Shown one piece after another: positions 1 to 18,236 of a DNA stretch of 18,236 nucleotides. Position 1 is the stretch's first letter. Every line of letters begins with the position of its first letter. Made by a program: the position numbers and the translations under genes. This DNA is from Anneissia japonica (taxonomy: Eukaryota), in contig NW_022688036.1 of NCBI RefSeq assembly GCF_011630105.1, forward strand, positions 64,001 through 82,236, written 5' to 3'. Below the pieces are notes generated by a model. That model had not been told where the DNA came from and made no database searches. It was given only the letters and a program-made list of their open reading frames with translations.

Positions 1-188
1 TCATACTCTTATATATTAATGGTGGTACTGTAAGATGTGTCAAAATAATAGCCAGATATATTAATAATTGTTATTGCCGTTAACTCTTTTGTTTGCTGCA
101 GTCATCCATAATGTTTTGCTGCATTGTAAGATGGTCATTGATCTTTGATAATACGGTATAAAATATAAACGATAAGATACTACAACAT

Positions 189-208
189 CTTTTTTTTTTT
201 TTTTTTTT
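189..208 (+). repeat. T homopolymer of about 26 nt (189-208 is its 3' part). It serves as the polypyrimidine tract of the acceptor at 212.
   Basis: Direct reading. Confidence 0.9.
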
Positions 209-212
209 GCAG

Positions 213-482
213 GTCAAACTTCATTATACCGAGTCATCCTCTGTACTGCTGTGATAGCTTATTTTCTTGAACAAGCTCTCATGCATTGGAAAAAACTTTC
301 TAGTGATGCCAATGATCAAGAGTTCTTAGCTCTTTATGGCAAGGCATTTTTGAGTCTGAGGAAAGCTGAATCTTTTCTTCAGAAAGAGAGTTTGATGAAA
401 GTGCATCAACACTTGTTGTTGAAAGAAGCAACATGGCTGCAGTTTGCAGAGAACAACTTGCTCGAATTGCCAGCACTGACTG
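213..482 (+). CDS. Internal coding exon of an unidentified multi-exon gene; the window starts inside the gene. Encodes ...QTSLYRVILCTAVIAYFLEQALMHWKKLSSDANDQEFLALYGKAFLSLRKAESFLQKESLMKVHQHLLLKEATWLQFAENNLLELPALT.
   Basis: A 26-nt poly-T tract plus GCAG acceptor ends at 212. An open frame runs from 212 to the donor CTG|GTAAGAAG at 483. The frame has no stops and the exon ends in phase 1, which is exactly what the next exon needs. Confidence 0.6.
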
Positions 483-1443
483 GTAAGAAGTACAAAACAG
501 TCTGTGATATGAAATTTCAGTATGCTATGCAGTGTTCTCCCGAAGCCGTTTTAGCTGTCAATTTTACCAGTAAAAATAACTGACCAACCAGTAAAAATTG
601 TGTGTTGGTAGAATAAAAAAGCACATTATTTGGTCTAGGTTGACTAGGCTGCCCTTCTTTCAATAAACGAACATCATTCCTTTCCAGGCCTAAGCTATGA
701 TTACGTATTATTGTTTTTTGAAGCCATTTAAATCCACTTAAAATTGGCAATATCTGAAGTTGTGTGCGCTTAGCTGGCTCTTTGGACAAATTTACCAGTA
801 AAAATTTTTCAATTGGGAGAACACTGCTATGAATGCTGGATATTTTGTTTTACACGGTTTAGGACTTTCACAGTATATAATGTATAGGAAGTACAGGCTT
901 TTTGTTCATACACAGTATGTATATTTATGAACATCCTACAGTAATTATTTCTACATATTGTATCTGTCAATTATAACATGCAAATTCCCTTAACCTTAGT
1001 CAAAGGAAGTAAACAAACTTTTGAGAATGTACATGTTATACATATCTGTAGAGCCTACAGTCCACCTACCTAACATACACTGCAACATGCACTCAGCTTA
1101 CATATCGTTATATTCTGTAATGTTTTCATTCTTCCCTATAGTAGTAGGGGAGGGACGAGAATCTCATGTCTCCCTGATTTATAGATTTAGCCCACACCAG
1201 TGTGAAGAATTTCTGTGCACCTATGATGATAGAGACATTATAAGGCTAAAACTTTAAGCATCTGTGCCACGTTTGTATGCAGCATTATAGTAGAGAGCTA
1301 CTAATACTGTTGTACTGTAGTCTATCTATATATTGTACACTGGAAGTAGCCATGCTAAATCGCAGAAACAGTCAACCAGTGACAGTTACAAAGTTGTATT
1401 TTTTTAAGGAAATTTTTTAAATGACTCTGTATTTCCCTTACAG

Positions 1444-1544
1444 ACTTACATGTTAACAGTTCATTGATTGCTCCTGCTGAGAAGCTAATAAATTTTGACC
1501 AAAGATTAGGTCAATTATTGAGAAGGTCTGTGGATTGCAAGCAA
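1444..1544 (+). CDS. Coding exon, 101 nt. The carried-over G makes 34 codons: DLHVNSSLIAPAEKLINFDQRLGQLLRRSVDCKQ.
   Basis: Acceptor tttcccttacag|AC and donor CAA|GTAAGT at 1545. No stop codons in the frame fixed by the upstream exon phase; ends in phase 0. Confidence 0.5.
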
Positions 1545-1735
1545 GTAAGTTCCTATTGATTATTTGATCTGCAGTGCAAACCACGAATTGGCTAATATTA
1601 GATAACAGCCGTAAAATTTTTTACCAAAGCAGGTTTACACTTAGTCTTTGATTAATAATAATCAAATGCGAAAACGACTTATATGCTGTAGGCTATCAAA
1701 TGTAACTTTGTTGTATTATTTATATTTATTTATAG

Positions 1736-1835
1736 AAGTCATTTTGGACATTGTCATGCAGTTTTGCTGTAATTTTTGGAATCAACCGCAGAAAAATTAT
1801 AACTGTTTTAGAGCAGGCTGGTCTCAGGTCATTTG
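1736..1835 (+). CDS. Coding exon, 100 nt: KSFWTLSCSFAVIFGINRRKIITVLEQAGLRSF plus 1 nt. The frame differs from the six-frame track ORF 1648-1848.
   Basis: Acceptor tatttatttatag|AAG and donor TTTG|GTATGTACC at 1836. The frame inherited from the exon-2 phase is open, leaves 1 nt, and joins the last exon exactly in its long ORF frame. The track's other frame would hit a stop straight after splicing into the last exon. Confidence 0.45.
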
Positions 1836-2144
1836 GTATGTACCATAATCTTAATATTCTATTTCATACTTACCCAAATAAACAGACTACACTATTACTA
1901 TAACCAACCCCCCCCCCCCAAAAAAAAAGAAAAATAGAATCTTCCATCACTTTAATCCGTTACTATTAGGAAAATATAAACATAACCCTATAACATAAGC
2001 TAATCAAATATTAAGCAAACATATTTAAAAATATCTTTAATATGTTGAATATTGTGACTTTATCCAGATCTTGTGGGAACATGTTAATAGTTCTTTTTTA
2101 GCAATTACATAGTTGTTGATTTTATTCTCCGGTTGAATTTAAAG

Positions 2145-2365
2145 GATTGGCACTTCAACAAGAAGTTTACTCCATGTTTGCCATGGCCATTGGTATTGTG
2201 AGTCTGGCAGCATTATTGCCTGACTACCGTGGCTATACACAAATTCATGACAGATTAAATGCATGGCTGGATGAGAAGGAGAAAGCTAACTATGGCCTAG
2301 CCTCACAGCTTGAACTTGGCAGTAACTGGTTGGATGTGGCCTCTAAAATGTTTCAAGATGTTTGA
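2145..2365 (+). CDS. Terminal coding exon: G-LALQQEVYSMFAMAIGIVSLAALLPDYRGYTQIHDRLNAWLDEKEKANYGLASQLELGSNWLDVASKMFQDV*. Stop TGA at 2363-2365.
   Basis: Acceptor ttattctccggttgaatttaaag|GA. The long ORF 2147-2365 is in the frame predicted by the upstream exon phases. An 18-residue hydrophobic segment (VYSMFAMAIGIVSLAALL) suggests a transmembrane or amphipathic helix. Confidence 0.55.
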
Positions 2366-2375
2366 CTGTTATTGG

Positions 2376-2381
2376 ATTAAA
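2376..2381 (+). terminator. Candidate poly(A) signal variant ATTAAA, 11 nt after the stop codon.
   Basis: ggATTAAAgcagcaaaaaaatt. No canonical AATAAA lies within 300 nt downstream. Confidence 0.2.
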
Positions 2382-5037
2382 GCAGCAAAAAAATTAAGTC
2401 TACTTTAATTGGACAGTTTCTTCAATTTTAAGAGTTTTGCAAATGTTTATAAATGAGACATATTCACCCAGTGCTCTTTAAAAGTTTATGATGATTTTTA
2501 AAAGTTAGTAAGGTAACTCCAAGGAGTATTAAGTAGTATTCTTTAAGATATACTAAGTTGTTTTTATCCTAGCAGACTCAAACATTCTTATAATGTTGGC
2601 GAAAGTTAGTTGTACATCAGAAAATAACGTTAACACAACGCTACAGCAACATTCACACTAATTTCCAAGTACTGTACATTATGTATTTATGTTTTTACAA
2701 AAAAAAAAAAACGGTTTCGACACCAAACTGTAACATTATTATAACATGTCATATTTACCTATATATACCCAGATAAAGTCTTATGTTTTTATGACACCCA
2801 GATAATGAATTTTAAACTTGTTTTAATATTTGAAATAATTATGGTACTAGTTGTGTCAAATTCATAACTGCTTCGGTCAAGTTTCAAAGTAAGAATGAAT
2901 CCAAAAATTTACAACCTTGGTTGTATCTGTAGGATAATGTAGGTATTGGTACCTCAGTGGCAAGTCCGGCCAAATGATTTGTAGATCAACTTAAAGATGT
3001 TCCCTAACTAAATGAACTAAAGGCAGTGACGTCAGATAGAATGAATGGAAAGTACAAGCCAAGTCAGTCTGAGAATGCTCTGCCTAAGTTTAAGACCTGA
3101 TGTATTAAATTTAATGACTACAATTATTCGTTTATAATATAAAAAAAAAAACACCAAAAAAATAGTATGTAGCCAAGGAAAGCATACACTAATGTAAGAG
3201 TTATTGTTGCCAAATTATGAAAGATAAAATGTTTTATATTGTTGTGTAATGTTATTTTGATGTTTAATGTCAACAAATGAAATGCTTTTAAGGTAGTATA
3301 GGAATGAAAAGCTACCCAGAATATAAGCATATGGTAATAAAATATGCTATATTTGAAACATTATATTTTAAAGTTTTATACTGAGGAAATTTCGTAATCA
3401 GTAAATCGTAAAAGTGGCTTATTCATGTTATATTAAATAGAATCTATTTGTCAACTTCAGATTTAAGTGTTTGGTCTTGTATAGCTTTTTGATTTGTTAA
3501 AATGAATTACTGTATCTCCGTTTCTAAGAACAACATGGCTGGTGATCGCATAAGCAGATTTTACAGAAATATGTACAATTTCTGGACTTGATCATGCAAG
3601 GTCGCAATGTGACCTGATACAATGGATGGAGGTGGTGGTGTGGGTGGGGCCACTCGAACGTGGAAGAACATTAATTTATCGTGAAATGATGCAATAATAG
3701 GCCTGGTTGCTTTAACCATAGAGAATATAAAACTTGTCTGTTATATTTTCTTTATGCTTTAACTTACAGTAATTGGGCCTATTTCAGGCGTTTTCTCAAT
3801 ACGAAACGGTAAAATGCACTCACACGCAGGCCTCACCAGTTGAGAACCCTTAAAATATAAGCATTGGATGATCGTATTGACAACGTCACAGAGCCGGTTT
3901 GCATTCATCATCAGTGTTCTCCACCACGCGCGCTTGTATCGGTCTTTATGCATTTTATTGTTATTGTAAGTTTCCTGACTGTTAATCAAACATCTGTTTT
4001 CTATTCTACTTCTTTATTTCCTTCACCGTATTAGATTTGATTCAAAATTGTAAGTGCCTTACTTTTAAAGCTTAAACCATTAAGCTGTTGTATGCCTAAA
4101 TTCTGTATAATATTTTGTTTGCTTTAGAATTAATGTACTGCAATAAAATTGTTAAGAATAGTATTATTTTATTGTTTAATATAACAGCATATAATATAAC
4201 ATAGCAGGTTGTTATGAATTTGCTTGTAACTTAAGATAAACATGTACACAGATGAAAAGAAGAAATTGGAATACGTAAAAAAACTTGTAGGTATATATTT
4301 ACACAGAAACATTTAACGAAAAATATATTTTCGTAGTCTAGGGATATAATAATATACTATTACTATATATCGATTAAGAAGAAATGCGGCGTTGTAAAAT
4401 TACAAATTTACACAAACGTAACCTAGCGTATATTGCGACGGTCGGTCGCTGTCTGACTCAAACATATCTGAACACCATGGTCTGTTTGATTGTCGGCAGC
4501 TGAAAAGATCGTCGTTGATGAACCAATTGCGACGGTATCCTTGGAATTTTCTCATGTATTTATTTTAACATTTTTAAAGTTTAAATATTAATCGAGTCGG
4601 AAATGTTAAACACTATTATTGTTAGGAAAGGATAGTTTTGGACGATATCATTGATATCAACGATATCATTGAGCTAATCTTGTCAACCGATAGTGTGTTG
4701 ATTTGCGTTACCCAAAATTATTGCATAATATATAATTATGAATTTACTCAGTACACGGTGATATTTTTAATGTTCATTTAATGATTATATAATAATAATA
4801 ATATATAATTATTATGATTATGTAATATATATTAAATAATTTACCCCGATTGAAAGAGGATTTGCATTTCATTACCTTGAATAAAGTATATAGTCGGAAT
4901 AGAATAATGAACTTGATTTTAAACGTGTTTTTATATGTCACATTTTTACGTATGTTGAATTTTGTGAATTTCTGCTCCCATATTGTGTAGTCTAGTTTTT
5001 GTCTTGGATCGACAGTGTAGGCTGACTGTATGCAGCA

Positions 5038-5298
5038 TATAGGCGGATTCAAGGGGGACCAACCCGACCCCCCCCCCCCCCCCCTTCAATTTGTCAAAAT
5101 TTTAAAAAAAAATAAGAAAAAAGAAAATTCGACTAAAATTTTGAGTCTAGGAATGCCATTTCCTTCCACCTTGAGTTGCCATAATCATAAATTGTCGTAC
5201 CTCACCCCCAACCATGGTGGGCTGAGGTAGTATAGACCCTCCACCTCTGAAAATCCCTCTCTGGGCCCCTCTATTTCAAATTCCTGGATCCGCCACTG
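5038..5298 (+). mobile_element. MITE-like non-autonomous element, copy A1, about 261 bp, with terminal inverted repeats (TIRs): 5' aggcggattcaaggggg ... 3' cctggatccgccactg. It contains a C16 homopolymer and an internal ccatgg-centred palindrome.
   Basis: Homologous at roughly 75% by eye to 15828-16096, and in reverse orientation to 14072-14290 and 12081-12206. The 5' and 3' termini are reverse complements of each other. Confidence 0.6.
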
Positions 5299-6571
5299 AT
5301 AGGCCTATATGCCGGGTGTTTTGTCGATCGACACTCATGATCAGTCGTGGTAAAACATTGTGCCTCAACCTGTGATTCAATTAAACCACTAAAAGCCCCG
5401 CTCCTTGTAAAGTGTTGATGTTAAGATCCCACAAATCAACACGTGCATTTGCGGGACGCCCGTATTCCAGCCATGTTCCAAAAAATAATTTTAAAAAAAT
5501 ACGTATTATCGCACAAGGATATTAAACAAATAATGTAATTATTAATAATTGGGCGATCATTTTTTTTTTTCCCGGCCCAGCCCCCTAACCGTCCCTGAGT
5601 AATGCTATAAACTATAATAAATATAACTAATTTTAAATGTTAAAGAAGAGGTGGAAAAACAGGGATCCGAACTCCGGGAATCATTGCTGCTTTTCGTTGA
5701 GGAACTATGCTTGAATGTATACTGTAACTTCTACAATATATACAGAGTGACTGATATCCAGCTGAGATGTTATTACGAGTTAGAACCCTTTCAGAGTCGA
5801 AGGCAATTCCAAATGATTATATCTGTAACTTCTGTGTCTTTTGTATCCATGATATTTGGTGTTTCTCTATAAAATACTCTCTACTAATTGGAGGTGTCAA
5901 TTAAAGTCTCCTCATGTTTTGGGGGTTTCTGATTGGATCACAGAGAAATTCTTCTTCTATGATATAAAAACATGTTTATTCAACTACAGTATATTAATAA
6001 TAAATAATAATAATACACATTTTTAAAGCGCCTATTAAAGCAAACAAAAACTTGCTTGTCACCGGCGCTATATTGATATTGTTTCCACGTTTGCATGGCG
6101 AAGTAATAATATATGTTAATGCTTGAGGTACGGTACACCACGAAAAGAACTGTTGTAGATTGGTTGAGGAAATTTCGACGTTTCCATTTAGTTGCTTCAA
6201 TGTTGTCTTCAGGAGAATATATAATATATAGACACTCTTAATTTTGATGGATTATCCTACCTAATATTATTGAATCCTAATAATACATTACAATACATTG
6301 ATACCATACAGGCCTATGCTGTAATACAGTAAACCGATATTATTGTTAGAATAAGTATGACTCCAGAAATAGAGAAAAATAATGAAAAGTTTTAGTCCCA
6401 ACTGTACAAATGCCATTGTCTTTAAAGAAATACAAGAAAGTTCAATTCCAAACTCAAAGTAGATATTTTGTATAGATTGATAATTAATTTTCTAAAATAA
6501 AATATAGGCCTAGGCATATACATCGTAAAGCAAAATGACACCATACCGACACCATCCACAATTTTTTACGA

Positions 6572-6607
6572 TTTATTCCAGCGATTCAGTCGACGTCGCA
6601 CTTTATT
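6572..6607 (-). terminator. Two AATAAA poly(A) signals on the minus strand (plus-strand TTTATT at 6602-6607 and 6572-6577), just downstream of the CTLD stop codon.
   Basis: The minus strand reads ggaaAATAAAgtgcgacg and ctggAATAAAtcgtaaaa, 15 and 45 nt after the stop. Confidence 0.35.
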
Positions 6608-6621
6608 TTCCAACATCGTTG

Positions 6622-7086
6622 CTAATAACCACATGGTTTCATTTCACAAACGTATGAAACAGTTGTGTCACCGCAGGATCCATACACTTCATCAGTCGTC
6701 AGATCAACACTAACGCAGTTGCCTGAAACGAGAGCGGTGGTAGACAGAGAAACGGCATTTCCATCGCTATCAAATACATCTGTTCCATCATTGGTCCAAT
6801 CCACATAGTATTGAGATGACCAAGGAACTAGATCTAAAAGTAACGACTTTGTAGCATTGTAGTTTTCTTCGGTCACGTGCATAAATGTTGAAACCGCTGT
6901 ATCATCGGAGAACTTCTCGCATGTCTTACTTGGTCCTATGTTTTGCCACTGCATGTCGTCTACGACTACTTTGATGCATCGGCTTCCAGGAATGGCGTAC
7001 CAAGTAGATGGACAGCTACTGTCACAAACCACAATAAGAAACAGCAGCATTATGGATTTGACCTTTAATAGACAAAAAAAAATCAT
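6622..7086 (-). CDS. Intronless gene for a secreted C-type lectin-like domain (CTLD) protein, 154 aa. The N-terminus (MIFFCLLKVKSIMLLFLIVVCDSS) is signal-peptide-like; the second Met at codon 13 may be the true start.
   Basis: The translation has the long-form CTLD cysteine framework: C-P-x-x-W...C at the start (CPSTWYAIPGSRC), W...C (WQNIGPSKTCEKF), a W-x-W-x-DG-like core (YVDWTNDG), GNCVSVD, and C...YVCE at the end (SCGDTTVSYVCEMKP). There are no EPN/QPD or WND motifs, so it is probably a non-canonical or non-sugar-binding CTLD. Confidence 0.75.
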   Translation of the reverse strand: MIFFCLLKVKSIMLLFLIVVCDSSCPSTWYAIPGSRCIKVVVDDMQWQNIGPSKTCEKFSDDTAVSTFMHVTEENYNATKSLLLDLVPWSSQYYVDWTNDGTDVFDSDGNAVSLSTTALVSGNCVSVDLTTDEVYGSCGDTTVSYVCEMKPCGY

Positions 7087-7144
7087 TTTGTGGATTTATT
7101 ATTTAAAAAAACCTCGAAAGAGACGATTACAGTTTGGGAAGGAA

Positions 7145-7163
7145 AGGTCAAAGGTTAAGGTCA
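7145..7163. promoter_or_regulatory. Tandem nuclear-receptor half-sites AGGTCA-a-AGGTTA-AGGTCA: a DR1 element plus an abutting third half-site. It lies 59-77 bp upstream of the CTLD ATG, with an A/T-rich TATA-like stretch (7092-7103) in between.
   Basis: Read directly: ggaaAGGTCAaAGGTTAAGGTCAtggg. AGGTCA direct repeats spaced 1 nt apart are the classic HNF4/RXR/COUP-TF (DR1) site. Their position next to a gene start is suggestive. Confidence 0.3.
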
Positions 7164-8160
7164 TGGGAATTCTATTTGATTTTTACCCTCGAGCGTAGAA
7201 AAAAATAATACACGTCTTGCGTATTGTTCGGTATTCAGGCAGGAGGTGTGCACTTTAATTTTATTATTACTATTACTTAGGTCCTACTGTTTGCAAAAAG
7301 AAGATAAATCTTATTTCTGATACAGTCATTACCAAAATAGTGTCAATAAAAGAAACAACCCTTCAACAAAAATTATTTTATGTCGAATTACTGTTCTTTT
7401 ATTTGTATTTTTAATTATTTCTATACTTTATTTTTATTTTTTTTATTTATTTCAATTTATTTTACATTTAATTTTTTTCAGCAAGCTGTTTTAAGGTTTC
7501 TTAGTTTTTGAGTTTAAAAAATGTAGGCCTAATATTGAAGTGTTCAAGTACGTCTGATTGTAGTTGTGAAAGTAAGTTACTTTTATGCCGCCCTAATGTA
7601 CTTGGTAATTGCGATAGTGTGTTCATTTGAGAACTGTAATGCTTGAAATGCAGGTGAGAGTGGATCAGATCTAAAAATATGTCCAAACATATTCCATATC
7701 GACTCCGATATTCTGTGGGAAATTTGTTGGGATTTTGTAATAGTATATATATATATGAATTGCCTATTACGTTAGGCCATGTTGAGAATTCCTAGCAAAT
7801 GTATGACATTATACGACTTTGCTAAAAACGTTGGTTTTGTCCAACTATTACTGTTGTATAAAAGAATTGATTAGTGCTTCATATACTTTTTTTCTAAGGA
7901 AATAGTTTTTTCAACCACACTTCTGTTTTCGAATACAATGGTAGCGAGTGTGTTTTCGTTTATCTATGTCTGTGTCAGTAAATGAACCGAGGAGTTTGTG
8001 TTTTGTTCCGATTTTCAACAATAACTTCACTTATATTTGAATCGTGCACTTACTGTTATCCCTTCGTTAACAATAGGTTTCATTTTAAAGTGCTTTAGTT
8101 ATTTATTTTCTTTAGTTTTTACAGTAAAAAACAAATGAGAGATCTAAAATTGTTCTTGAA

Positions 8161-10180
8161 ATGAATGAATCAAAAATTCACAACTCAAAAGATGTAGCTA
8201 GACGTTTCAATACTTACTTTACAAATATGGCCAATCACCTTGTTGACAAGCTGCCCCCTATGAGACATATATTATATAGCTATGCTTCTAAAGTTATCAA
8301 AGATTTTTATTCTTCCAAAGTTTTAAGTTCATTTACTCTTGAACCTGTTACAGAGGAATTCATTCTGAAACAGTTAGAAAACCTGGACCCTACTAAAAGT
8401 ACCGGTCTTGATGGGTTACCCTAAAGATTTTTTTTAAAGACTGTGCCCATGTATCGGCTTCTCCTATTACTTATATTATAAATCTGTCCATCAATACGGG
8501 ATATGTTCCGAGTGACTTAAAAATTGCTAAGGTCACCCCATTGTATAAAAAGAAATGCCGTAAAACCCAGAAAATTATAGGCCCATAAGCGTTCTAAATA
8601 TTGTTTCTAAAATTCTTGAAAAATCTGTTCATATTCAGTTAGAACAATACATTGTTAACAATAATCTCATTTATCAATATCAGTCAGGTTTTCGACAAAC
8701 TTATTCAACTGAAAGTACCTTAACTTAATTTAACTGATACAATCAAATTAAATAATTCCAAAGGCATACATACTGATATGGTCCTAATTGATTTATGTAG
8801 AGCATTTGATACTGTTGATCACGAGATATATGTGAGAAACTTGCTCTAATGGGCGTTACCTCCTTAGACTGGTTTCGTTCATATCTGACGAATAGGACCC
8901 AGGTTGTTAAAGTTGAAGATTCATTATCTGAGCCTATGGATATCACATGCGGGGTGCCCCAAGGTAGCATTTTGGGTCCCTTGCTTTTTTTTATGCTTTG
9001 TAAATGATATGATAGTATTAACCCTGAATGTAAATTACTCTTATATGCTGATGACAGTGCCATTGTATCTTGGCACAATGATCCAAATGTCGTTGCCGAT
9101 AGACTTGGTAACGCTCTTAATTCATGTAGAATTTGGCTTATTGAAAACAAATTATCTATAAACCTCAGTAAAACGGAGTCAATAATTTTTTGTAGTAAAA
9201 AAAAAACTTAAACGTATAAAATCATTTGAAGTCACTAATGGTGGCCGTACATTAAAAGGTTCCCAGTCTGTCAAATATCTTGGTGTTGAACTCGATAATT
9301 CAGCCTCTGGAAATAATACTTGATATTGCCAAGAGTGTTATCAAGAAGGCAAATGCTAGACTATGGTTTCTTTACCGTCAAGCAAGGTGTCTTGACAAAA
9401 ATACTAGAAAATTATTATCTATGGCCCTTATTCAATGCATTTGTGATTATTGTGCTTCTTCATGGTATGAAGGTATTGATAAAGTTTTGAAACAAAAACC
9501 GAAAATAAAATTATTCGGTTTATCCTTGATTTTGGACCACGGACACATGTAGGTCACAAAGAGCTGTCCAGCCCTGGTCTACTTAAGGTTGAAGATCGAG
9601 TTAAATTTTTAAGACTTTGTAATGTCCATAAGATTCTTAATAATAAGGCAGCTCCATATCTTTCTGAGCAATTTACGCGAGTTTCTGAAATTCATACACA
9701 ACACTCGTCAACATAAAGTCAATTTGGTTGTACCTCTGCTTAAAGGAAATAATCAGTCTCATTCTACCTTTTTCGTTTCGGATCAATGACTGGAATGCTC
9801 TCCCAACTAATTTAAAATTAATTACTAATATGGCTACATTTAAAGTACACATCAAAAAACTGTATGAACGCAATAGTGCTCAATTGCAATAATTACAATT
9901 GAGTACTGTTGCGTTCTATCTAAATAATTAGATAATTGGGTGCATCTTGGTTTTTAAATGCTGTTCTTTTTCTTTTTAATATGTATTAATTTTGATAACT
10001 TTCATGATTTTTAATTGTGCAATGTGCACCCCATTGGAAATCGGCTGGATTCCCGGCCTAATGGGTGTTCCAGATCCTCGTTGTGTTTGATAATTGTAAA
10101 AAAAAATTCCTAAATTTTTTTTATTTCTATATTTTATATTTTACATATGAGCATCGAATAAATTCAATTCAATTCAATTA
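8161..10180 (+). mobile_element. 5'-truncated, frameshifted non-LTR retrotransposon (LINE) of the CR1/L2-like clade. It covers most of the ORF2 RT domain, the C-terminal domain, and a 3' UTR with a hairpin and (CAATT)n tail.
   Basis: Translation across three frames gives hallmark motifs. These are FTLEPVTEEFILKQLENLDPTKSTGLDGLP, then NYRPISVLNIVSKILEKSVHIQLEQYIVNNNLIYQYQSGFRQTYSTESTL, VLIDLCRAFDTVDHEI, GVPQGSILGPLLF and LYADDSAIVS (FADD-like). The tail domain reads WLIENKLSINLSKTESIIF ... GHKELSSPGLLKVEDRVKFLRLCNVHKILNNKAAPYLSEQF. Multiple stops and frameshifts show it is dead. It ends in gagcatcgaataaattcaattcaattcaatt. Confidence 0.8.
9866..9916 (+). other. Hairpin in the LINE 3' UTR: a 21-bp stem (2 mismatches) with a 9-nt loop.
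   Basis: GAACGCAATAGTGCTCAATTG-caataatta-CAATTGAGTACTGTTGCGTTC. CR1-clade LINEs typically carry a 3' stem-loop plus a short tandem-repeat tail instead of poly(A). Confidence 0.5.
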
Positions 10181-10762
10181 CTGAAATCGATCTCTTTAAG
10201 TCGTCGAAAATCGACATCATCTGCGAATGCTGTTTCTTCTGTCATACCATTATTGGTAATTTTAGGTGAAAATGTCTATAGGACCGTTCTAAGGAGTGTC
10301 TGTATTGCGGTTATACGGGTCAATTCCACTCCAGAGCAGCAACAGCTTGCGACAATCGCTAGAAAAACACAAAACTAACCTATTTTGAATTCGCCTGTGA
10401 GCGTACACAACAGCAATACGATAATGTTTACGAATAGTGTGCGAGCTGTAATCATCGTTGACAACTTGGATAATTAAAAAACACGATAGGTATTGACGCA
10501 ATCGCGACTAATGCCAATAATAATGCAAACTGCACTTTTTCTCACTTGGCTGACTGTAAATCTAAATTTAATTGATTTGGTATTCTAGAACACAAGTTTA
10601 TTAACAACCAATGAAAATGGTATGGCAATAAGCATTTTATATTCAACCATTTCTGCCCGTCTACATGTGAAAATAATGTTCCTTGTTGTGTATGCTATAA
10701 AAAAAAAATGCTGTCATAAATATCAATAAAGTACTACTAAGCCTATAAAGTACTTCCCTATA

Positions 10763-10832
10763 TAATAAGAATAATAATAATAATAATAAGAATAATAATA
10801 ATAATAGGCCTAATAATAATAATAATAAACTT
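10763..10832. repeat. (AAT)n microsatellite interrupted by ...aataataGGCCTAataat...
   Basis: Direct reading. Confidence 0.9.
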
Positions 10833-12080
10833 TATTTAACCACGGTAAACTAATTGATCACCTCAATGGTGTTTTGATCAATGCTGTAACAGACATAATC
10901 AAACTTAACTAATGTTAAATAAAGAATAATATTAATTACAGGAAATAAAAGGAAACTATTAAAACCAAATTAGGAAACAAAAACTAAAACTACAAAATAC
11001 GAAAAATTATTGTAATACATAAAAATGTGCTAATCTCAATATCGGGTGTGAAATTCAGAAAGCTATAATATCAAACTCATCCATTAGACTGACTAATACC
11101 GATTGAAAATTATGTAAACATTTGCACACGAACCTACTGGCTGGCCCTCCAACTAATACACTGGGGTTTGTTTTTTTAATACAGTAATATTTTGCCAAGG
11201 GTCAGTGTTCTTATAATTGTGCCATCTTTAGACTCAAAATGTTCTTATTTTGTTCTGATTTTAAACACGCTTCAAAGATAGAAAATGATTATTAAACAAC
11301 AGTAGGCATACCGGTATCTTATTCTAGTGTATATCATTCTCACCTACTGCACATAAGGTAAAGTTATGACCAACATAATTTTAGTGCTTTTTATGGGTTT
11401 TTATAGTTTGTTTAATAAAAACATTATTTGACATTTTACCTAAGCCTCAATTTGTTCTTATTTTGTTCTTGTTGTGCAATTTTAGCTTAAGTGTTCTTAT
11501 AAATTGCGTTCTTATATATATAAAAAAAAAGTGTAGTCATTTACAGGTCAGAATGAAGTCATACGGAGAACTGCTACAATAGGCCTACCGAAACGAAACT
11601 GGAGTTGCTTTTGATGATTTACGTCAAGGCCGTTTGTGAATGGATAACAGAAAATTAATAAACTGGAGATTGGCAGTATGGTTAATATTCACTCTACCTT
11701 GACGCTATTACTGAAGTTTATTGAATACAAAAGCTTTTAAAAGATTTCTAACGTACAATTATATTGAATTGCAGACAAGTACATTGATTTTTGAGTTTAT
11801 CCATCAAAAAATGTTGAAATAACTTGGTTCCTTCACAGTAGAATTTCAACATACCAGCCGTATACTTATTTAAATGATCTGATGGTCTAGAGGTCTTTCT
11901 TTATTAGTAAATAGGATTATGCCTATTTAAATTTTAGATTGTAATAGAGCCCTGCTCTGGGACACTTTTGTGAAGAATCTTGATATAAGTGTCAGTAAAT
12001 ATTATGAATTAATTTTCTTAAACAAGACAAACTAACTTGAAATTAAATGTTGATAGTTTTGACATTCCAATCATGAAGGG

Positions 12081-12206
12081 CTAGGTGTAATCAGGGGCTG
12101 AAATAGAGGGGAGCCAGGAAATGACTTTTACAAATGGAGAGGGAGTATGTATATATATAATTTAGAGGGCCAGGCCGGCTTTTTGCATTTGAATCATCCG
12201 CCACTG
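12081..12206 (-). mobile_element. MITE-like element, copy B1, reverse orientation and strongly internally deleted (about 126 bp). Its right terminus is ...gaatcatccgccactg.
   Basis: ctaggtgtaatcaggggctgaaatagaggggagccaggaaatgac matches B2 and the reverse complement of the A1 3' end. It ends with the family terminus ccgccactg. Confidence 0.45.
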
Positions 12207-12403
12207 GTAATTATCCCCCAAAATTACTTGAAATGATGTTCAAAAGGGTAATGTCACTTAGTCATATCTTCAGAGAGGGGTGTGCGATGGGTGCGAAACA
12301 TGAATGGTTTCCGTGTGACGACATTGAAACTTTGGTCATTTACTTGATCCTCCGTAATCAAAATTTGATCAAAACAATAAGTGTGGTGAACGTATTTTCA
12401 GTA

Positions 12404-12602
12404 CAGTGGCGTATCTGGGGATGTGCGGAGAGACGCACATATCCCCACCCCCTCCTCCCCCACCCTACACTGCAAAAGAAGAAAGTTTACGCTTTTCCAG
12501 TCTCTCCCTCCCCCACCTCCGCACTGCATGGAAATATGAATATATATAAAAATCATCTATTTTATTTTGCCAGCTACCGCCTCCCCCTCTTTACCATCAC
12601 TA
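12404..12602 (+). mobile_element. MITE-like element, copy A3, forward and divergent. It starts TA|cagtggcgtatctgggg and ends ...ccatcactaa.
   Basis: The 5' 100 bp parallel A1 and A2: cagtggcg-atctgggg, then a C-rich run, then aaaagaagaaag. The 3' end resembles the TIR weakly. It lies head-to-head with B1, with 197 bp between them. Confidence 0.35.
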
Positions 12603-13167
12603 ACACACATTTCTCTTAGACACGCCGCTGTGTTTCAATAGCTAGCCTATTTGTTTTGTGCACTACTAAATTTCGAGTAATTCTATCTAAATATAGTATC
12701 CTATTTAGACCTACTTACGTTTTCCATGGTGTGATAAAGTGTCGGTTTATAGATCGTTAATATATTTAAGAATAAATATTATAATGATCTCTGGCCTTGA
12801 TATGTCTTCTGAATTAATATGAGAGCGTTTTATATTCACCGGTACCCAATCATGCCTATAGGATTATTAATATTATAATTGGAATGAATGCTCTGATGTG
12901 GGGATTGGATGTCTCTCCCTTTTATCACTGTTTTTTAACTGAAAATGAATAATTCCTAAAATGAAGTGAAAAAAAAGAAAAAAACAAGTAAGAGTAATAA
13001 GAAAAAAGGCCCTCATTCATTGATACTGCAAAACAAATAAAAGAGGACTTAGAACCATGGTTGAAAAAAAAATGGATCCTCTGCCGGGAAATAGCACATG
13101 CATACTTTACAAAAATGAATGTCCCTCACTTTAAAAGGGTAATACATTTAGATTGCAAATAGTCAAG

Positions 13168-13204
13168 TCATCATCATCATCATCATAATCACCACTACCA
13201 CCAC

Positions 13205-13288
<84 letters not shown>

Positions 13289-13342
13289 CATTATTATTAT
13301 TATTATTATTATCGTTATTACTATTATTGTTATTTTTATTAC

Positions 13343-13402
<60 letters not shown>

Positions 13403-13418
13403 CATCCTCATCGTCATT
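13168..13418. repeat. Compound microsatellite of about 250 bp: (ATC)6, then (ATT)n of roughly 70 units with a few ATC/GTT variants, then ATC/GTC units.
   Basis: Direct reading. It produces the spurious poly-Ile ORF 13163-13432. Confidence 0.95.
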
Positions 13419-14071
13419 AAGGAATGGCGCATTAGAAATCGAATAATGAATTGTTTTTTTATACCACTCCAGGTGGCGTTTTACATATAAACATTACTCA
13501 ATGGACTACGAAGGAAACTTTACAATTAGTAACAAATGTAAGTACAGCATTGAACATTTGCATCGTTAATTCACTAGTTAATGGGAATTCTGTCATCATT
13601 CTATGGTTATTATTTTGACTACGTTTGTTAGGCATCCGCATTGAAGGCATTGACAATTTCCTCGACAGAAGCATGCACTGACATGGCTGCATTTTATTCA
13701 GCAACATACATTCCAAGTGACTCGCTAAAACCACCAAAGACCTGAAACTGCCTAAAATACAGTAATTACAGCTTGGGGCTTGTCAACTTCCGTTCGTTGT
13801 TTACATTGTAGATTCGTATATGTTTGTTTTTTTTTTTGGTTTTTTTCATTGACAATATATGCAATTTATTACTAAGAGCCTATTACTGGTACACAACTGT
13901 CAATCCTGAACAATCGAAATTTGTTATAGCCCGACAAAAATATTTCTATATTATTTTTAAAGGACAGCGAAAGTGATCAGGGTAGGCCCAATTAATGACA
14001 CCAAATGTCTTTATCAACATTGATATTAATATCTTCATGGATGTGTACTTCCATGACAAAAAGGTACTACT

Positions 14072-14290
14072 GTAGTGACGGTTCAAGAAGTTCGAAATAG
14101 AGGGGATCCAGGAGACTTTCACAATGGATTTATGATTATGTCACCTCAATGGTCCATGCTCTAGATGGCCGGAAACAACTTAAATATGAATAAAATTTTC
14201 ATTTTCTTCTCCGTTTTTGAATATTTTTGAATAATTTAGGCGGTGGCCGGTTGCCGGTTGCACAATTCCCCTTTTTGAATATACAGAGCA
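14072..14290 (-). mobile_element. MITE-like element, copy B2, reverse orientation, with an internal deletion.
   Basis: tagtgacggttcaagaagttcgaaatagaggggatccaggag...atttatgattatg...aaaattttcattttcttctcc is the reverse complement of the A1/A2 3' half. The right end is less clear. Confidence 0.5.
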
Positions 14291-14315
14291 GTTCAACATT
14301 TAATATAGGACTGTA

Positions 14316-14399
14316 ATAATAATAATAATAATATTAATAATAATAATAGACCTAATTATAATAATAGACCTAATAATAATAATAATAATAATAATAGGC

Positions 14400-14454
<55 letters not shown>

Positions 14455-14508
14455 TAACAATAAGAATGATAATAATAATAATAACAATAACAATGATAAT
14501 AATAATGA
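14316..14508. repeat. Microsatellite (AAT)n of about 190 bp with interspersed TAGACCTA, TAGGCATA and CAAT variants.
   Basis: Direct reading. Confidence 0.95.
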
Positions 14509-14984
14509 AAAGTTATATAAAGTGCCGGTATCCCTTTAAGAGGAAATGCTCATGGTGTCCCTCTAAAACTCGTAAAGAAAGTCGAAATGTGAAATATATT
14601 TACATTTATAATACATTTGAAATAAAGATAGGCCTACATTTTTAAAAACAGACATGAGCCGTACATGTCTGAGACTCTCTCTATGTGGCCATGTGTGCAC
14701 GGATATTTATTTATTTATTCATTACCAATTCGACATATAGGCCTAGATGAATAATATGAAATGCAAGACATAGACAAGGCCCGACACCAATGGTGGTTCA
14801 CTGATCATATGATAAAATGTAGTTCATACATTCATTCATAAAGTAAAATCAATACAAAAAAGCGTGAATTTGAAAACAGTGTTAGCAAGAGGGCTCACAG
14901 TTTTTAATAAAAGATAGGGCAGCAGACCATTTAACAGAAAATGGCGCTAGGAGGAAGAGTTTTCTACAATTTAGCTGCCTTAAT

Positions 14985-15130
14985 AAAAACCGATTACGCC
15001 CCTTTTCCCCCCAGTTTTTAAATATTCAAAAATCTGTATCTCATTCACCGTTCCCCAGTTTTTCGTCAAACAACTTTTTTCTGTCTTTGAAAAATCAATT
15101 CTACAACATATCATTTTTTTTTTCCTCCGG
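14985..15130 (+). repeat. Possible further partial copy of the same MITE family (5' half).
   Basis: cgccccttttccccccagtttttaaatattcaaaaatctg resembles the A1 stretch cgacccccccccccccccccttcaatttgtcaaaatttt, and the reverse complement of B2 tttttgaatatttttgaataat. Weak. Confidence 0.2.
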
Positions 15131-15344
15131 AGCCTGACTTTAAATCGACATTACTAGCCAATTTAAGAGTCTATGTATGAATAAGAATATAGCACTGGTA
15201 TAATTTAACTGTCTTTTAATTGACAGGAAAACAATTTTGTCATTCATATTGTAAGCTTGTAACTTACTTAAATATAATTATTCAGTTATGAAATTAAATT
15301 CTTTATCTTTCAGCTCAAGAAAGACAGTGTATATTTAAATTTTA

Positions 15345-15492
15345 AATTGGACCTCATTGGAAATGGGCTTGACTCCGGACTAATGGACGTTCCTGGTGCT
15401 CACTACGGTAATTTTTACTTTTCTTGATCTCAATCTATTTGTTATCTTGCTTATGCATGTTGAGCATCGAATAAATTCAATCAATCAAAAAA
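15345..15492 (+). mobile_element. Second, tail-only copy (about 150 bp) of the same LINE 3' end, heavily 5'-truncated.
   Basis: cattggaaatgggcttgactccggactaatggacgttcctggtgctc...tgagcatcgaataaattcaatcaatc matches 10040-10180: cattggaaatcggctggattcccggcctaatgggtgttccagatcctc...tgagcatcgaataaattcaattcaatt. Confidence 0.55.
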
Positions 15493-15827
15493 TATTATAT
15501 CATGAAAAATGTTTGTAGGAAGATTATAGATATAGTATTATATTTATTGTTTATTGTCTATATATTCATTTCTAGTACAATAGTACACATTTTATAAATT
15601 TTATGTACCCGTGACAATCAGAATGCTAACATTATTTGTTTGCGCTATTGCGATCTACTAGTCCTGTCCAATGCCATGTATTTAATAATCCTCACATCAT
15701 TCCGTGGTATGATGATACTATATAGATAATTAATATTTAATATGATTATGCTGATATGATAAGAATTGTGAAGCACTATTATGTTGTACCAGCAGCATTG
15801 TCCATTATCATATATAACTGGTTGAGG

Positions 15828-16096
15828 TGCTCCCCTGGAAGGGGGAGGGGAGGGTGACAACCGTCCTGCCTCCCACCCTAAATCTTTTAAAATGGTAAAA
15901 AATTGGAGAAAAAAAGAAAATTACATTTAAATTTAAAATCTGAGAGTGGCATTTCTGGACATCTAGAGGTGCCATAATCGAAACGTTTATTACCTCAGCC
16001 CCATCCATGGTGGGGAATGAGGTGGTGGGAACCCTTCATATGGCAAAGTCCCTCCCCGTAGGCCCCTTTATTTCAAACCTACTGGCTCTGCCTCTG
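15828..16096 (+). mobile_element. MITE-like element, copy A2, same family.
   Basis: Aligns with A1 along its full length: ...aaaaaagaaaatt...ggcatttc...gccataatc...cctcagcccca-tccatgg-tggggaatgagg...ggcccctttatttcaaacctactggctctgcctctg. Confidence 0.6.
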
Positions 16097-16501
16097 TTTT
16101 TATTTATGTATTATTATGTTTTGATGATACTCCGTTATATTCTTTCTCTGTTTCCTAATCTTTTCTCAATATTTTTCTATTCCAGTGATGTAGACAAAGA
16201 AGCCACAACTGTCAGTAAAAAATGTGAAAGGGCAACCGAACTTACCAATTATTCGTAGATAGCCAAAAATTGTGTAATCTCAAAAAAATAATGTTAGCAA
16301 TATGTAATAATTCTTGTAGGCTTTATGTTTATTAATATTGTATTATTGCTGCTAATATTTATCTTATTGAGGAAGTAACCCGTTTGTTGTAAAGAATGTA
16401 GACATGTACGATAATAAGATATAACATTTTGCGGATTAAAATGAGATTTATTGATATTTGCCAGATGAACATTATATAGGCCTACAGTATATAAACATAA
16501 A

Positions 16502-16504
<3 letters not shown>

Positions 16505-16537
<33 letters not shown>
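16505..16537. repeat. (TA)16 dinucleotide microsatellite.
   Basis: Direct reading. Confidence 0.95.
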
Positions 16538-16538
<1 letters not shown>

Positions 16539-16767
16539 CACAACTTGATTTCAATGATTGAAAATAAATATCAAATGGAATTGTGCATTTCTTTTCATCT
16601 TATTTAATATCTATGTTTACTGTAATAAATCCAATAGCTAAAATATCCTTATTATGATAAGCTTATATACTTAAACCAAAAAGTGAAGAATTGCTTCATC
16701 AATATGTAGGCCTACTACTTTATCTAATAAACTAGCAATTCTTTCGAGGACGCCCTTAACAAAAACA

Positions 16768-16978
16768 TAAAACCGGAAATGACGTGGTTGCTAAGCAACA
16801 AGCTCATGCATAATCATGAATATTCAGTGACACCTGTTATAATTAGACTAACAATAAAATCTTTTTGGTCGATTTTGTCAAAACTGAGCTAAAAGTTTTT
16901 ATTGTTAGTCTAATGAGCACAGGTGTTACTGAATATGCATGAGCTGTAGCCTAGCAACCGACGTCATTTCCTGTTTTG
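16768..16978. mobile_element. Foldback / long-TIR MITE-like element: two inverted arms of about 85-90 bp (roughly 85% identical, with one 10-bp indel) around a 37-bp spacer.
   Basis: Left arm aaaaccggaaatgacgtggttgctaagcaacaagctcatgcataatcatgaatattcagtgacacctgttataattagactaacaataaaa. The right arm reverse-complemented is aaaacaggaaatgacgtcggttgctaggctacagctcatgcatattcagtaacacctgtgctcattagactaacaataaaa. Confidence 0.6.
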
Positions 16979-17420
16979 TAAAATTCGACAGCACCTTGCT
17001 CTGAAAAGTTTCGTAACTTTTTGGTGTCATGTAAATATGTTTTGAAAGAGTGTTTATAAGATATAGTAGCCTGTAGTAGTGCTATATTCGAATCGAAGCG
17101 ATTATAATATATTTAATTCGATTATATACTGAATAATAATCATGAAATATATAATATTATTATTAATGTAATTACGAAAAAAGAAGTACGCACTATGATG
17201 TATTATAAATTACACTACAGTGTACATTTATTTCTTACATACTCGGAAATTTTACATCAGAGCTATATAAACGTAATATAAATAGAATATAAAGATTTTA
17301 GTTTTATATAATATAATATAATATATATATAATGCCTAGGCCTAATTATATTTAACTATGTAATATCATTCGAGAATTACTTGCTCGTTGTATAAGAAAC
17401 ATAATTGGCAAATTTAATTC

Positions 17421-17549
17421 CATTCCGGCAATCCAGTGAAATAAATCCTAATAAATGTCCACGCGATTGAATTAAAACCACATAAATCCGGCTATTGATA
17501 GCATCTTGTGTTCCGGCAATTTAATACACATCGTGTTCCGCTGACAATG
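17421..17549. promoter_or_regulatory. Cluster of four related motifs within about 130 bp: TTCCGGCAAT twice, plus ATCCGGCTATT and TTCCGCTGACAAT. The reverse complement is ATTGCCGGAA, which contains an ETS-type CCGGAA core.
   Basis: cattccggcaatcc (17421), aaatccggctattg (17485), gtgttccggcaattt (17508), gtgttccgctgacaatg (17534). This segment is locally CpG-richer than its surroundings. Confidence 0.15.
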
Positions 17550-18236
17550 ATTGTACATCGACTTCGCACTTATTGATGTATCGGTAGATTTGACCTAAGA
17601 CACTGAAATAAAAGAGATTGAACTAGTGAGAAATGCATTCAAACTATTTTCATTTTGTCAACTGTGTTAATATAGGCCTAATTAAGTATAACTCTCATTA
17701 GATTAAAAACACTTTATGGAAACATTATGACATTCATATTTTCATGAAGTATAGGAATGCAAATTCAGAAAATAAAATTGATTGTTTGATTGATTTAATA
17801 CATTATGTAAAGTGTACATGTTAATAAAGCGTTATTTTAATATGAGTGGGTACATCCCACCCTAAATCGAAAATGGTCCAAATTTTAAGACAGTCGAAAA
17901 TGTACTGATTACACTTTTTTTTTAAATTTCTTATGTAATAAAAAACTTAAAAAGCGAATATTAAATCTTAACATTTTAACCAATACTCTATCGGACCTCT
18001 GTATCGTCCTATAATAATAAAGCTGGGTCCAACGTGCTTTTCCCCTTCACGGCATCTGGAGTTTTAGGTGAACCCTCCCCATTTGGTATGATCATTACAT
18101 CTGATGTTCTGAGATTATTACTTATCTCTTCATTTTTATAGCATTTCGAAAGACGTTTTAGATTTTTTAGATTTTCCCTACATCCTATCATGATTTGTAT
18201 ACATATACAATGTATATGTACATATTTTATATATGT

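Follow-up and report, generated by a model that had tools for sequence, protein, structure and literature searches.

TA-GGCC-TA palindromes scattered through crinoid and other animal DNA: possible excision footprints of a TA-targeting transposon

What process would write one perfect 8-bp palindrome into otherwise unrelated DNA again and again? The question is raised by an 18,236-bp stretch of the genome of the crinoid Anneissia japonica (the window, which makes up all of our crinoid data), where 11 exact copies of the octamer TAGGCCTA occur. The original prediction for this stretch held that the octamer is heavily over-represented and suggested, as one hypothesis, that its copies are excision footprints left by a TA-targeting cut-and-paste transposon with GG...CC termini. 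We found the excess to be real and to recur in a second, distant animal, and we tentatively favor the interpretation that the copies are such footprints, from an element with GG(CC)...(GG)CC ends; the transposon origin, the TA target, the sequence of the ends and how far the cuts are staggered are all points that we infer. The window is rich in microsatellites and has hardly any long open reading frames (ORFs), and as one ORF is 98% identical to an A. japonica protein, it is mostly non-coding crinoid nuclear DNA. Its G+C content is 32.3%, somewhat below the 35% or so first guessed; this is in keeping with the A. japonica genome, which is known from an Illumina-only assembly and has 553 Mb and 33.2% G+C (PMC7351957).

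The over-representation was confirmed under every null model that we applied. Dinucleotide shuffling of the window (200 shuffles) gave an expectation of 0.20 copies and a maximum of 2, while Markov models gave 0.16–0.22 copies at orders 0–2 and 0.79 at order 3, so that the excess is 14- to 55-fold, depending on the null model. Once words from microsatellites and homopolymers are set aside, TAGGCCTA ranks first among the octamers of the window, at a density of 0.6 per kb. Ten of the positions listed in the original prediction are correct, and the remaining copy lies at 16477 instead of 16487. All copies fall between 5300 and 17680, and positions 1–5299 hold none (P = 0.023 under a uniform distribution). 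GGCC occurs 41 times, 11 of these within the octamer, and AGGCCT occurs 15 times, with both the outer T and the outer A present in 11 of the 15, which indicates that the unit is the full 8-bp palindrome. A longer context that had been claimed for most copies, WWTAGGCCTAMW, is complete in only 3/11. We also observed 15 one-mismatch variants against about 4.8 expected (roughly 3-fold), and the combined total of 26 was reached by none of the 200 shuffles.

Four copies lie inside (AAT)n arrays and carry a signature of insertion. The one at 10805..10812, within the array at 10762–10828, had been described as a variant and is in fact exact; the three in the (TAA)n array at 14314–14506 are variants, as had been stated, and represent decayed copies (14347..14402, with TAGACCTA at 14347 and 14365 and TAGGCATA at 14395). 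The two TAGACCTA copies are probably one event, doubled by array slippage. At all four positions, the (AAT)n register is the same on both sides of the copy. In the array at 10805, removal of 6 bp yields a perfect array (31/33 period-3 identity), whereas removal of 5, 7, 8 or 9 bp leaves only 27–28/33. Since the register is kept and only a 6-bp removal restores the array, these copies represent a gain of 6 bp, which can be read as TA|GGCC|TA arising from a single TA. Substitution from AATAAT to AGGCCT would need four changes. The view that the in-array copies are secondary insertions thus held up, as in-register gains of 6 bp are what a footprint of the form TA + GG|CC + TA predicts. Outside the arrays, the copies likewise do not appear to be ancestral parts of a repeat, as their flanks are unrelated and they lie outside the repeat families detected in the window. 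After insertion, copies seem to mutate freely. The ratio of variant to exact copies in the window is about 1, where steady production with neutral decay predicts 8/7 (calculated for an 8-bp word), and the 3-fold enrichment of one-mismatch copies fits neutral decay and not a conserved site.

The octamer is not confined to the crinoid. Metagenome contigs were scanned for octamers with (AAT)n flanks using a 22-mer query (ATAATAATAGGCCTAATAATAA), and at least 120 contigs from another animal host contained the octamer inside (AAT)n; neither 596 Gb of bacterial and archaeal genomes nor IMG/VR contained the same 22-mer. Removal of duplicates left 113 loci (391 kb) of eukaryotic host DNA with 40–50% G+C, in which exons of galactosyltransferase and of coatomer-beta and a non-LTR (long terminal repeat) retrotransposon were identified. 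The coatomer (COPB1) fragment has its best named relative in the brachiopod Lingula, at 83% identity, and on this basis the second host is a different animal, probably a spiralian. An order-3 model predicts about 7 sites in total for these loci; they contain 234 octamers, of which about 121 (0.31 per kb) lie outside the query selection, and TAGGCCTA is the most enriched octamer here too. In contigs chosen through a protein and not by the motif, we counted 4 sites in 39.5 kb versus 0.57 expected (P = 0.003). A contig from another eukaryote (L121) was not enriched (1 versus 0.24), which makes the excess lineage-specific and not universal. In the second organism, G>A transitions are enriched 2–3 fold, but other substitution variants hardly exceed expectation; its copies are therefore younger than those of the crinoid, and the motif is not restored after deamination. 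About one fifth of the arrays (many of those in L001–L060) adjoin a single SINE-like (short interspersed nuclear element) repeat on their right (...tttataaagcgc...cttcagaggcgctgg...). The (AAT)n tracts beside it are probably SINE tails, so some array-embedded octamers could have been inherited with a tail and not be independent.

Could all of this be ordinary, that is, the outcome of chance, composition, a single interspersed repeat, or an assembly or adapter artefact? We consider this very improbable. The crinoid evidence does come from one 18 kb window with every copy in 5300–17680, which is what such an explanation has in its favor, but no shuffle came near 11 copies, the excess is 14-fold even relative to an order-3 model, flanks are unrelated, and mutated copies exist. 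The motif also recurs across assemblies from different pipelines (JGI, ENA/MEGAHIT and Logan), the array-flanked 22-mer is missing from the prokaryotic and IMG/VR collections, and the contig without enrichment speaks against a universal compositional effect. Chance and a shared repeat are both refuted as explanations.

Several kinds of repeat were examined individually. We found no sequence shared by the flanks of the 11 window copies, nor by those of the 121 copies of the second organism that were not ascertained through the query, and none of the repeat families detected in the window includes the octamer. The possibility that one repeat consensus holds all copies, which the original prediction had named as a refuting outcome, is therefore not borne out, and an ordinary interspersed repeat (SINE, miniature inverted-repeat transposable element (MITE) or satellite consensus) was rejected because homology does not extend beyond the motif at any of these copies. 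An alternative proposal, that the octamers are the termini of a tiny high-copy element, was not supported either: pairs of window sites do not bound inverted-repeat elements or repeated units, and nothing past the 8 bp is conserved. The collapse of a hAT-type element, which would have TAGG...CCTA ends and duplicate 8 bp of its target, is excluded because no direct repeats of 3–9 bp flank the octamer, left and right matches being equal to a random control at each length, with full 8-bp matches at 0/132 sites. Nematode-type telomere repeats have the unit TTAGGC; a head-to-head pair of these was set aside because T never precedes TAGGCCTA in the window. In the second organism, the sole biased position within 80 bp of the sites is -1, with a purine in 69% of half-sites (mainly extra G), giving a slight palindromic bias of R at -1 and Y at +1. 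There was no second motif or spacing signal of the sort found in PIWI-interacting RNA (piRNA)-type mini-promoters within these 80 bp, and no extended palindrome or hairpin around the sites, as positions -1 to -4 match palindromically no more often than chance predicts. Sites of the second organism do cluster at short range: 23/132 neighbor distances are 120 bp or less versus about 9 expected (an estimate from site density), which fits local hopping.

In the second organism, the center of the motif also varies in length. With the octamer masked in the 391 kb of the second organism, TAGGCTA/TAGCCTA is the top 7-mer that is not of low complexity (101 versus 26.7 expected, 3.8-fold), and TAGGCCCTA occurs 13 times versus 1.0 expected (about 13-fold). 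Both variants lie in unique contexts and have the flank bias of the octamer; TAGGTA, TAGCTA and TAGG-N-CCTA with A or T at N are not enriched in these loci. The excess over expectation is about 74 for the 7-mer, compared with about 36 for all substitution variants together, and decay by 1-bp deletion therefore cannot explain the 7-mer. Instead, the variable-length center looks like an alternative product of joining the ends ...TAGG and CCTA.... The 2,363 bp of contig L019 hold eight TAGGCTA/TAGCCTA sites, each in a different context, which is an extreme local cluster. When the 256 palindromic octamers were ranked in the second organism, the leaders were TAGGCCTA (33x), TACCGGTA (5.3x; 17 versus 3.2 expected) and TACATGTA (5.2x; 38 sites versus 7.3), all of the form TA-NNNN-TA, and TAAGCTTA was sixth. 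We take TACCGGTA to match mariner-type (CC..GG) ends and TACATGTA to match Tc1-type (CA..TG) ends, and the two words may be footprints of mariner-type and Tc1-type elements, respectively. T precedes TACCGGTA in 56% of half-sites, and part of its count may belong to a repeat. That a whole class of TA-NNNN-TA words matching Tc1/mariner ends is enriched supports the chemistry of footprints. An exact tandem, TAGGCCTATAGGCCTA, is present at L090:1217. When up to one mismatch was allowed, two double scars that overlap (TAGGCCTAGGCCTA) were found, about what we estimate for chance.

These data also bear on whether TAGGCCTA is instead a selected palindromic site to which a protein dimer binds, for example a factor acting at insulators, promoters or chromatin, which we judge to be quite unlikely. 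The perfect palindrome and the palindromic bias of its flanks would suit a dimer, and the copies at 6505 and 7524 bracket the only clear gene in the window (ORF 6622–7086). The gains of 6 bp in register within microsatellites, however, are not expected of such a site, the decayed copies of the window show that its loss is tolerated, and 0.3–0.6 copies per kb in non-coding DNA is far above known regulatory motifs. Short-range clustering and the scarcity of substitution variants in the second organism would again be compatible with a binding site, but half-sites spaced one base closer or further apart are enriched as well, which a rigid dimer would not predict, and no second signal lies within 80 bp. 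The Drosophila DRE (TATCGATA), which is bound by the transposase-derived protein DREF, has the same TA-NNNN-TA palindromic architecture. DRE is concentrated in promoters and conserved, whereas TAGGCCTA is far denser, sits in microsatellites and AT-rich non-coding DNA, and is not obviously conserved.

If the copies are footprints, each would be the scar of one cycle of insertion and excision by an element with the ends 5'-GG(CC)...(GG)CC-3'. Integration at TA would duplicate the TA, and excision would then cut a few bases inside each end, so that the donor site would keep both TAs together with terminal bases of the element. On rejoining by the host, GGCC overhangs, which are self-complementary, could be ligated unprocessed, giving a uniform TA-GGCC-TA product and a net gain of 6 bp. 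Where three bases (GGC) were kept, pairing with a central mismatch would give TAG(G/C)CTA, by the same logic as in the Sleeping Beauty footprint. The scars would afterwards be neutral and decay by point mutation. Excision of Minos leaves a characteristic 6-bp footprint (PMC3386967), and for Tc1/mariner footprints, variants whose center is one base shorter are explained by 3-nt overhangs that pair with a central mismatch (PMC2874221, PMC3386967). The octamer resembles these footprints in that the TA duplication is kept on both sides of a few terminal bases, as observed for 4/4 array-embedded copies, and in the net gain of a few bp (6 bp for Minos) and the palindromic or near-palindromic product. 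It differs in that we found no described family with GG(CC) ends, that Tc1/mariner footprints have not been reported as the top over-represented word of a genome, and that the crinoid window shows a strikingly uniform product. As to the superfamily, TA targeting suggests Tc1/mariner, and the copies work like Tc1/mariner footprints; membership is unproven because the cognate element was not found in the sampled DNA (the window and about 430 kb from the second organism).

The proposal that the octamers are excision scars thus stands in part: their non-ancestral nature, the 6-bp gain in register, their decay and, in the second animal, the variable center all agree with it, while neither an element nor an empty or filled site was recovered. 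Several observations count against it. No inverted-repeat element of the form TA|GG...CC|TA is present in the 18 kb window or in the second-organism contigs of about 430 kb, although a sample of this size would miss any family with fewer than about 1,500 copies per genome, which makes the failed search weak counter-evidence. There was no presence/absence polymorphism, as the octamer was conserved in 68/68 comparisons of near-identical contigs; divergent comparisons were few, all in a hypervariable repeat segment, and uninformative. The flank preference is weak (purine at -1 in 69% of half-sites versus 57% before TAGG generally), and heterogeneous junctions are seen in the second organism only, as the 7-mer is not enriched in the crinoid window (3 versus 2.4 expected). 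Hairpins that start with TAGG are not clearly commoner than those from other TA-tetramers. If the window is typical, 0.6 copies per kb corresponds to about 3x10^5 copies in 553 Mb, which would be unusually many fixed excisions, and finding one octamer in two distant animals requires the end sequence to be identical in both.

The search for a source element did yield some candidates. TAGG...CCTA hits in L084, L120 and L021 were discarded, as they lie within larger repeats or longer palindromes. When TA-flanked MITEs were sought more generally, the loci of the second organism yielded CA-type ends, and the only GG-type hit proved to be two octamers of the window pairing with each other, so no genuine GG-type element. 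The second organism also contains short hairpin inserts of 26–39 bp with ends TAGGC(C/T)GCATC...GATGC(G/A)GCCTA or TAGGCCGCCCGA... (L056:3065-3103, L092:1030-1061, L082:2775-2813, L125:3200-3231, L051:2035-2067, and L080 on the minus strand near 346). Three of these are copies of one event, and several lie in (ATT)n arrays and adjoin an octamer. Their ends are of the TAGGCCGC...GCGGCCTA type, and they could be internally deleted remnants of a larger element. We presume the resemblance of the hairpin stem (GCCGCATC/GATGCGGC) to enterobacterial repetitive extragenic palindromic (REP) hairpins to be coincidental.

Another possibility is that the octamers are collapsed remnants of ATon-like or PHIS-type (ISL2EU/Harbinger-related) elements, with TAGG and CCTA being not a TA duplication plus GG/CC but the element's own ends, and the scar these two ends joined via their common GGCC. 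ATon-I and ATon-II, MITEs of Aedes aegypti, end in A|TAGGCC...GGCCTA|T; they are 112–144 bp long with terminal inverted repeats of 15–17 bp, were first annotated as MITEs with a TA duplication and GGCC ends, and were later shown to integrate at AT, with empty sites AT and aberrant ones below 1% (PMC3422177). They remain unclassified, are present in many copies and were recently active, and no autonomous partner is known for them (PMC3422177). ATon MITEs are the only described elements that we found with this end motif, and they are possibly related to ISL2EU/PHIS. ISL2EU elements duplicate AT, and their ends usually start with GG (PMC4482050). The octamer equals the TAGGCC and GGCCTA ends of ATon overlapped on GGCC, and the hairpin inserts with their TAGGCCGC...GCGGCCTA ends could be taken in the same sense. 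Integration at AT, however, predicts A-TAGGCCTA-T and a gain of 8 bp, and we instead observed only the 8 bp themselves, with flanks that are not A...T and a 6-bp gain at TA. The base before the octamer is A in only 34% of half-sites of the second organism, where G is equally common, and in 41% of those in the window, which does not fit an AT target. The scar expected of ISL2EU-type excision, ATGGCCAT, shows no clear enrichment (1.5-fold in the second organism and, from a single site, 2.4-fold in the window). The window contains neither of the Harbinger-type scars, TTAGGCCTTA and TAAGGCCTAA, and their counts in the second organism are close to expectation. An origin from such remnants therefore appears improbable to us.

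The lack of a source element in the window and the roughly 430 kb of the second organism also fits a process that leaves no transposon scar at all, for example a nuclease or a repair activity by which DNA is broken at TA and rejoined with a fixed GGCC added, or a minimal palindrome that propagates itself in the manner of HIP1 (GCGATCGC). The very high density and very uniform product in the window, the position of TAGGCCTA at the top of the lists for two unrelated animals, and the freedom of the copies from context would all be natural for such a process. HIP1 is an octameric palindrome of cyanobacteria that occurs at about one copy per kb within genes; its origin is debated, and its maintenance is ascribed to selection or repair. 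Like HIP1, TAGGCCTA is an 8-bp perfect palindrome, dispersed and outside longer repeats, but its copies decay neutrally, insert in microsatellites and vary in the length of the center. No known enzyme adds a fixed GGCC, and repair that restores the motif, as very-short-patch repair does at its target, should deplete transition variants, which are enriched. A process of this kind would also leave the class-wide TA-NNNN-TA enrichment and its match to known transposon ends unexplained, and the length variants of the center fit end joining of element-derived ends. We therefore regard it as unlikely that a novel insertion or repair activity, or a minimal palindrome adding GGCC(TA) at TA, accounts for the copies, though this is an alternative to be taken seriously. 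Were it correct, hundreds of thousands of identical marks would have been written in at least two animal phyla, as a eukaryotic counterpart of the highly iterated palindromes of bacteria.

The individual copies of the window lie in varied surroundings. The first (5300..5307) directly adjoins a copy of a dispersed repeat at its 3' end (...ccgccactga|TAGGCCTA), as the original prediction had noted. This repeat (5053–5299, about 250 bp) has a poly-C tract at 5075–5090 and an internal A-rich stretch, and its second copy, at about 15850–16090 with 79% identity, lacks TAGGCCTA at its end; the repeat may be a SINE or a MITE. At 6505..6518, an exact copy and an overlapping one-mismatch copy have the middle TA in common (TAGGCCTAGGCATA), about 110 bp past the stop of the minus-strand ORF at 6622–7086, and the copy at 7524..7531 is about 440 bp upstream of the start of that ORF. 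The ORF is a single exon encoding 154 aa with 98% identity to A. japonica LOC117121161, an uncharacterised protein; the product has no Pfam domain, and its only relatives are A. japonica paralogues (six, with 38–98% identity), which form a cysteine-rich family. The copy at 11580..11587 is in unique sequence, those at 14629..14636 and 14738..14745 are 109 bp apart, and that at 16477..16484 precedes a (TA)16 tract by about 20 bp. The remaining copies are at 16707..16714, at 17337..17344 on the edge of an (ATATA)n tract, and at 17673..17680.

Other structural features were observed in the window as well. The microsatellites (ATT)66 at 13206–13402 and (TAA)62 at 14314–14506 form a reverse-complementary pair (88% over about 194 nt) and bracket about 900 bp in a large foldback-like structure, with decayed copies of TAGGCCTA in the right arm (14314–14506) only. 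A 115-bp TA-flanked MITE-like element at 16821–16935 has terminal inverted repeats that match at 13/14 nt (TTCAGTGACACCTG / CAGGTGTTACTGAA); the sequences on either side of it, gctcatgca and tgcatgagc, are mutually inverted, and the element may sit in a larger palindrome. Finally, a perfect 21-nt direct repeat (TGAGCATCGAATAAATTCAAT) occurs at 10148–10168 and 15461–15481, 5.3 kb apart and in contexts that are otherwise unrelated.

In agreement with the original prediction, we found no report in the literature of TAGGCCTA as a footprint or as a genome signature. What is new here is the excess of the octamer in a second, distant animal and the presence of junction-like variants. If the copies are footprints, the commonest non-trivial word of a feather-star genome would be a fossil record of cut-and-paste transposition, in which about 3x10^5 scars (extrapolated to 553 Mb) far outnumber the surviving elements. 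The history of excision could then be counted, and dated through the ratio of exact to decayed copies, and excision scars would be able to reshape k-mer spectra and interrupt microsatellites. A TA-targeting, GGCC-ended family, possibly akin to ATon of mosquitoes, would be common to distant marine invertebrates. If the copies are not footprints, a fixed palindrome is being written at such density by a new process, which would be more interesting still.

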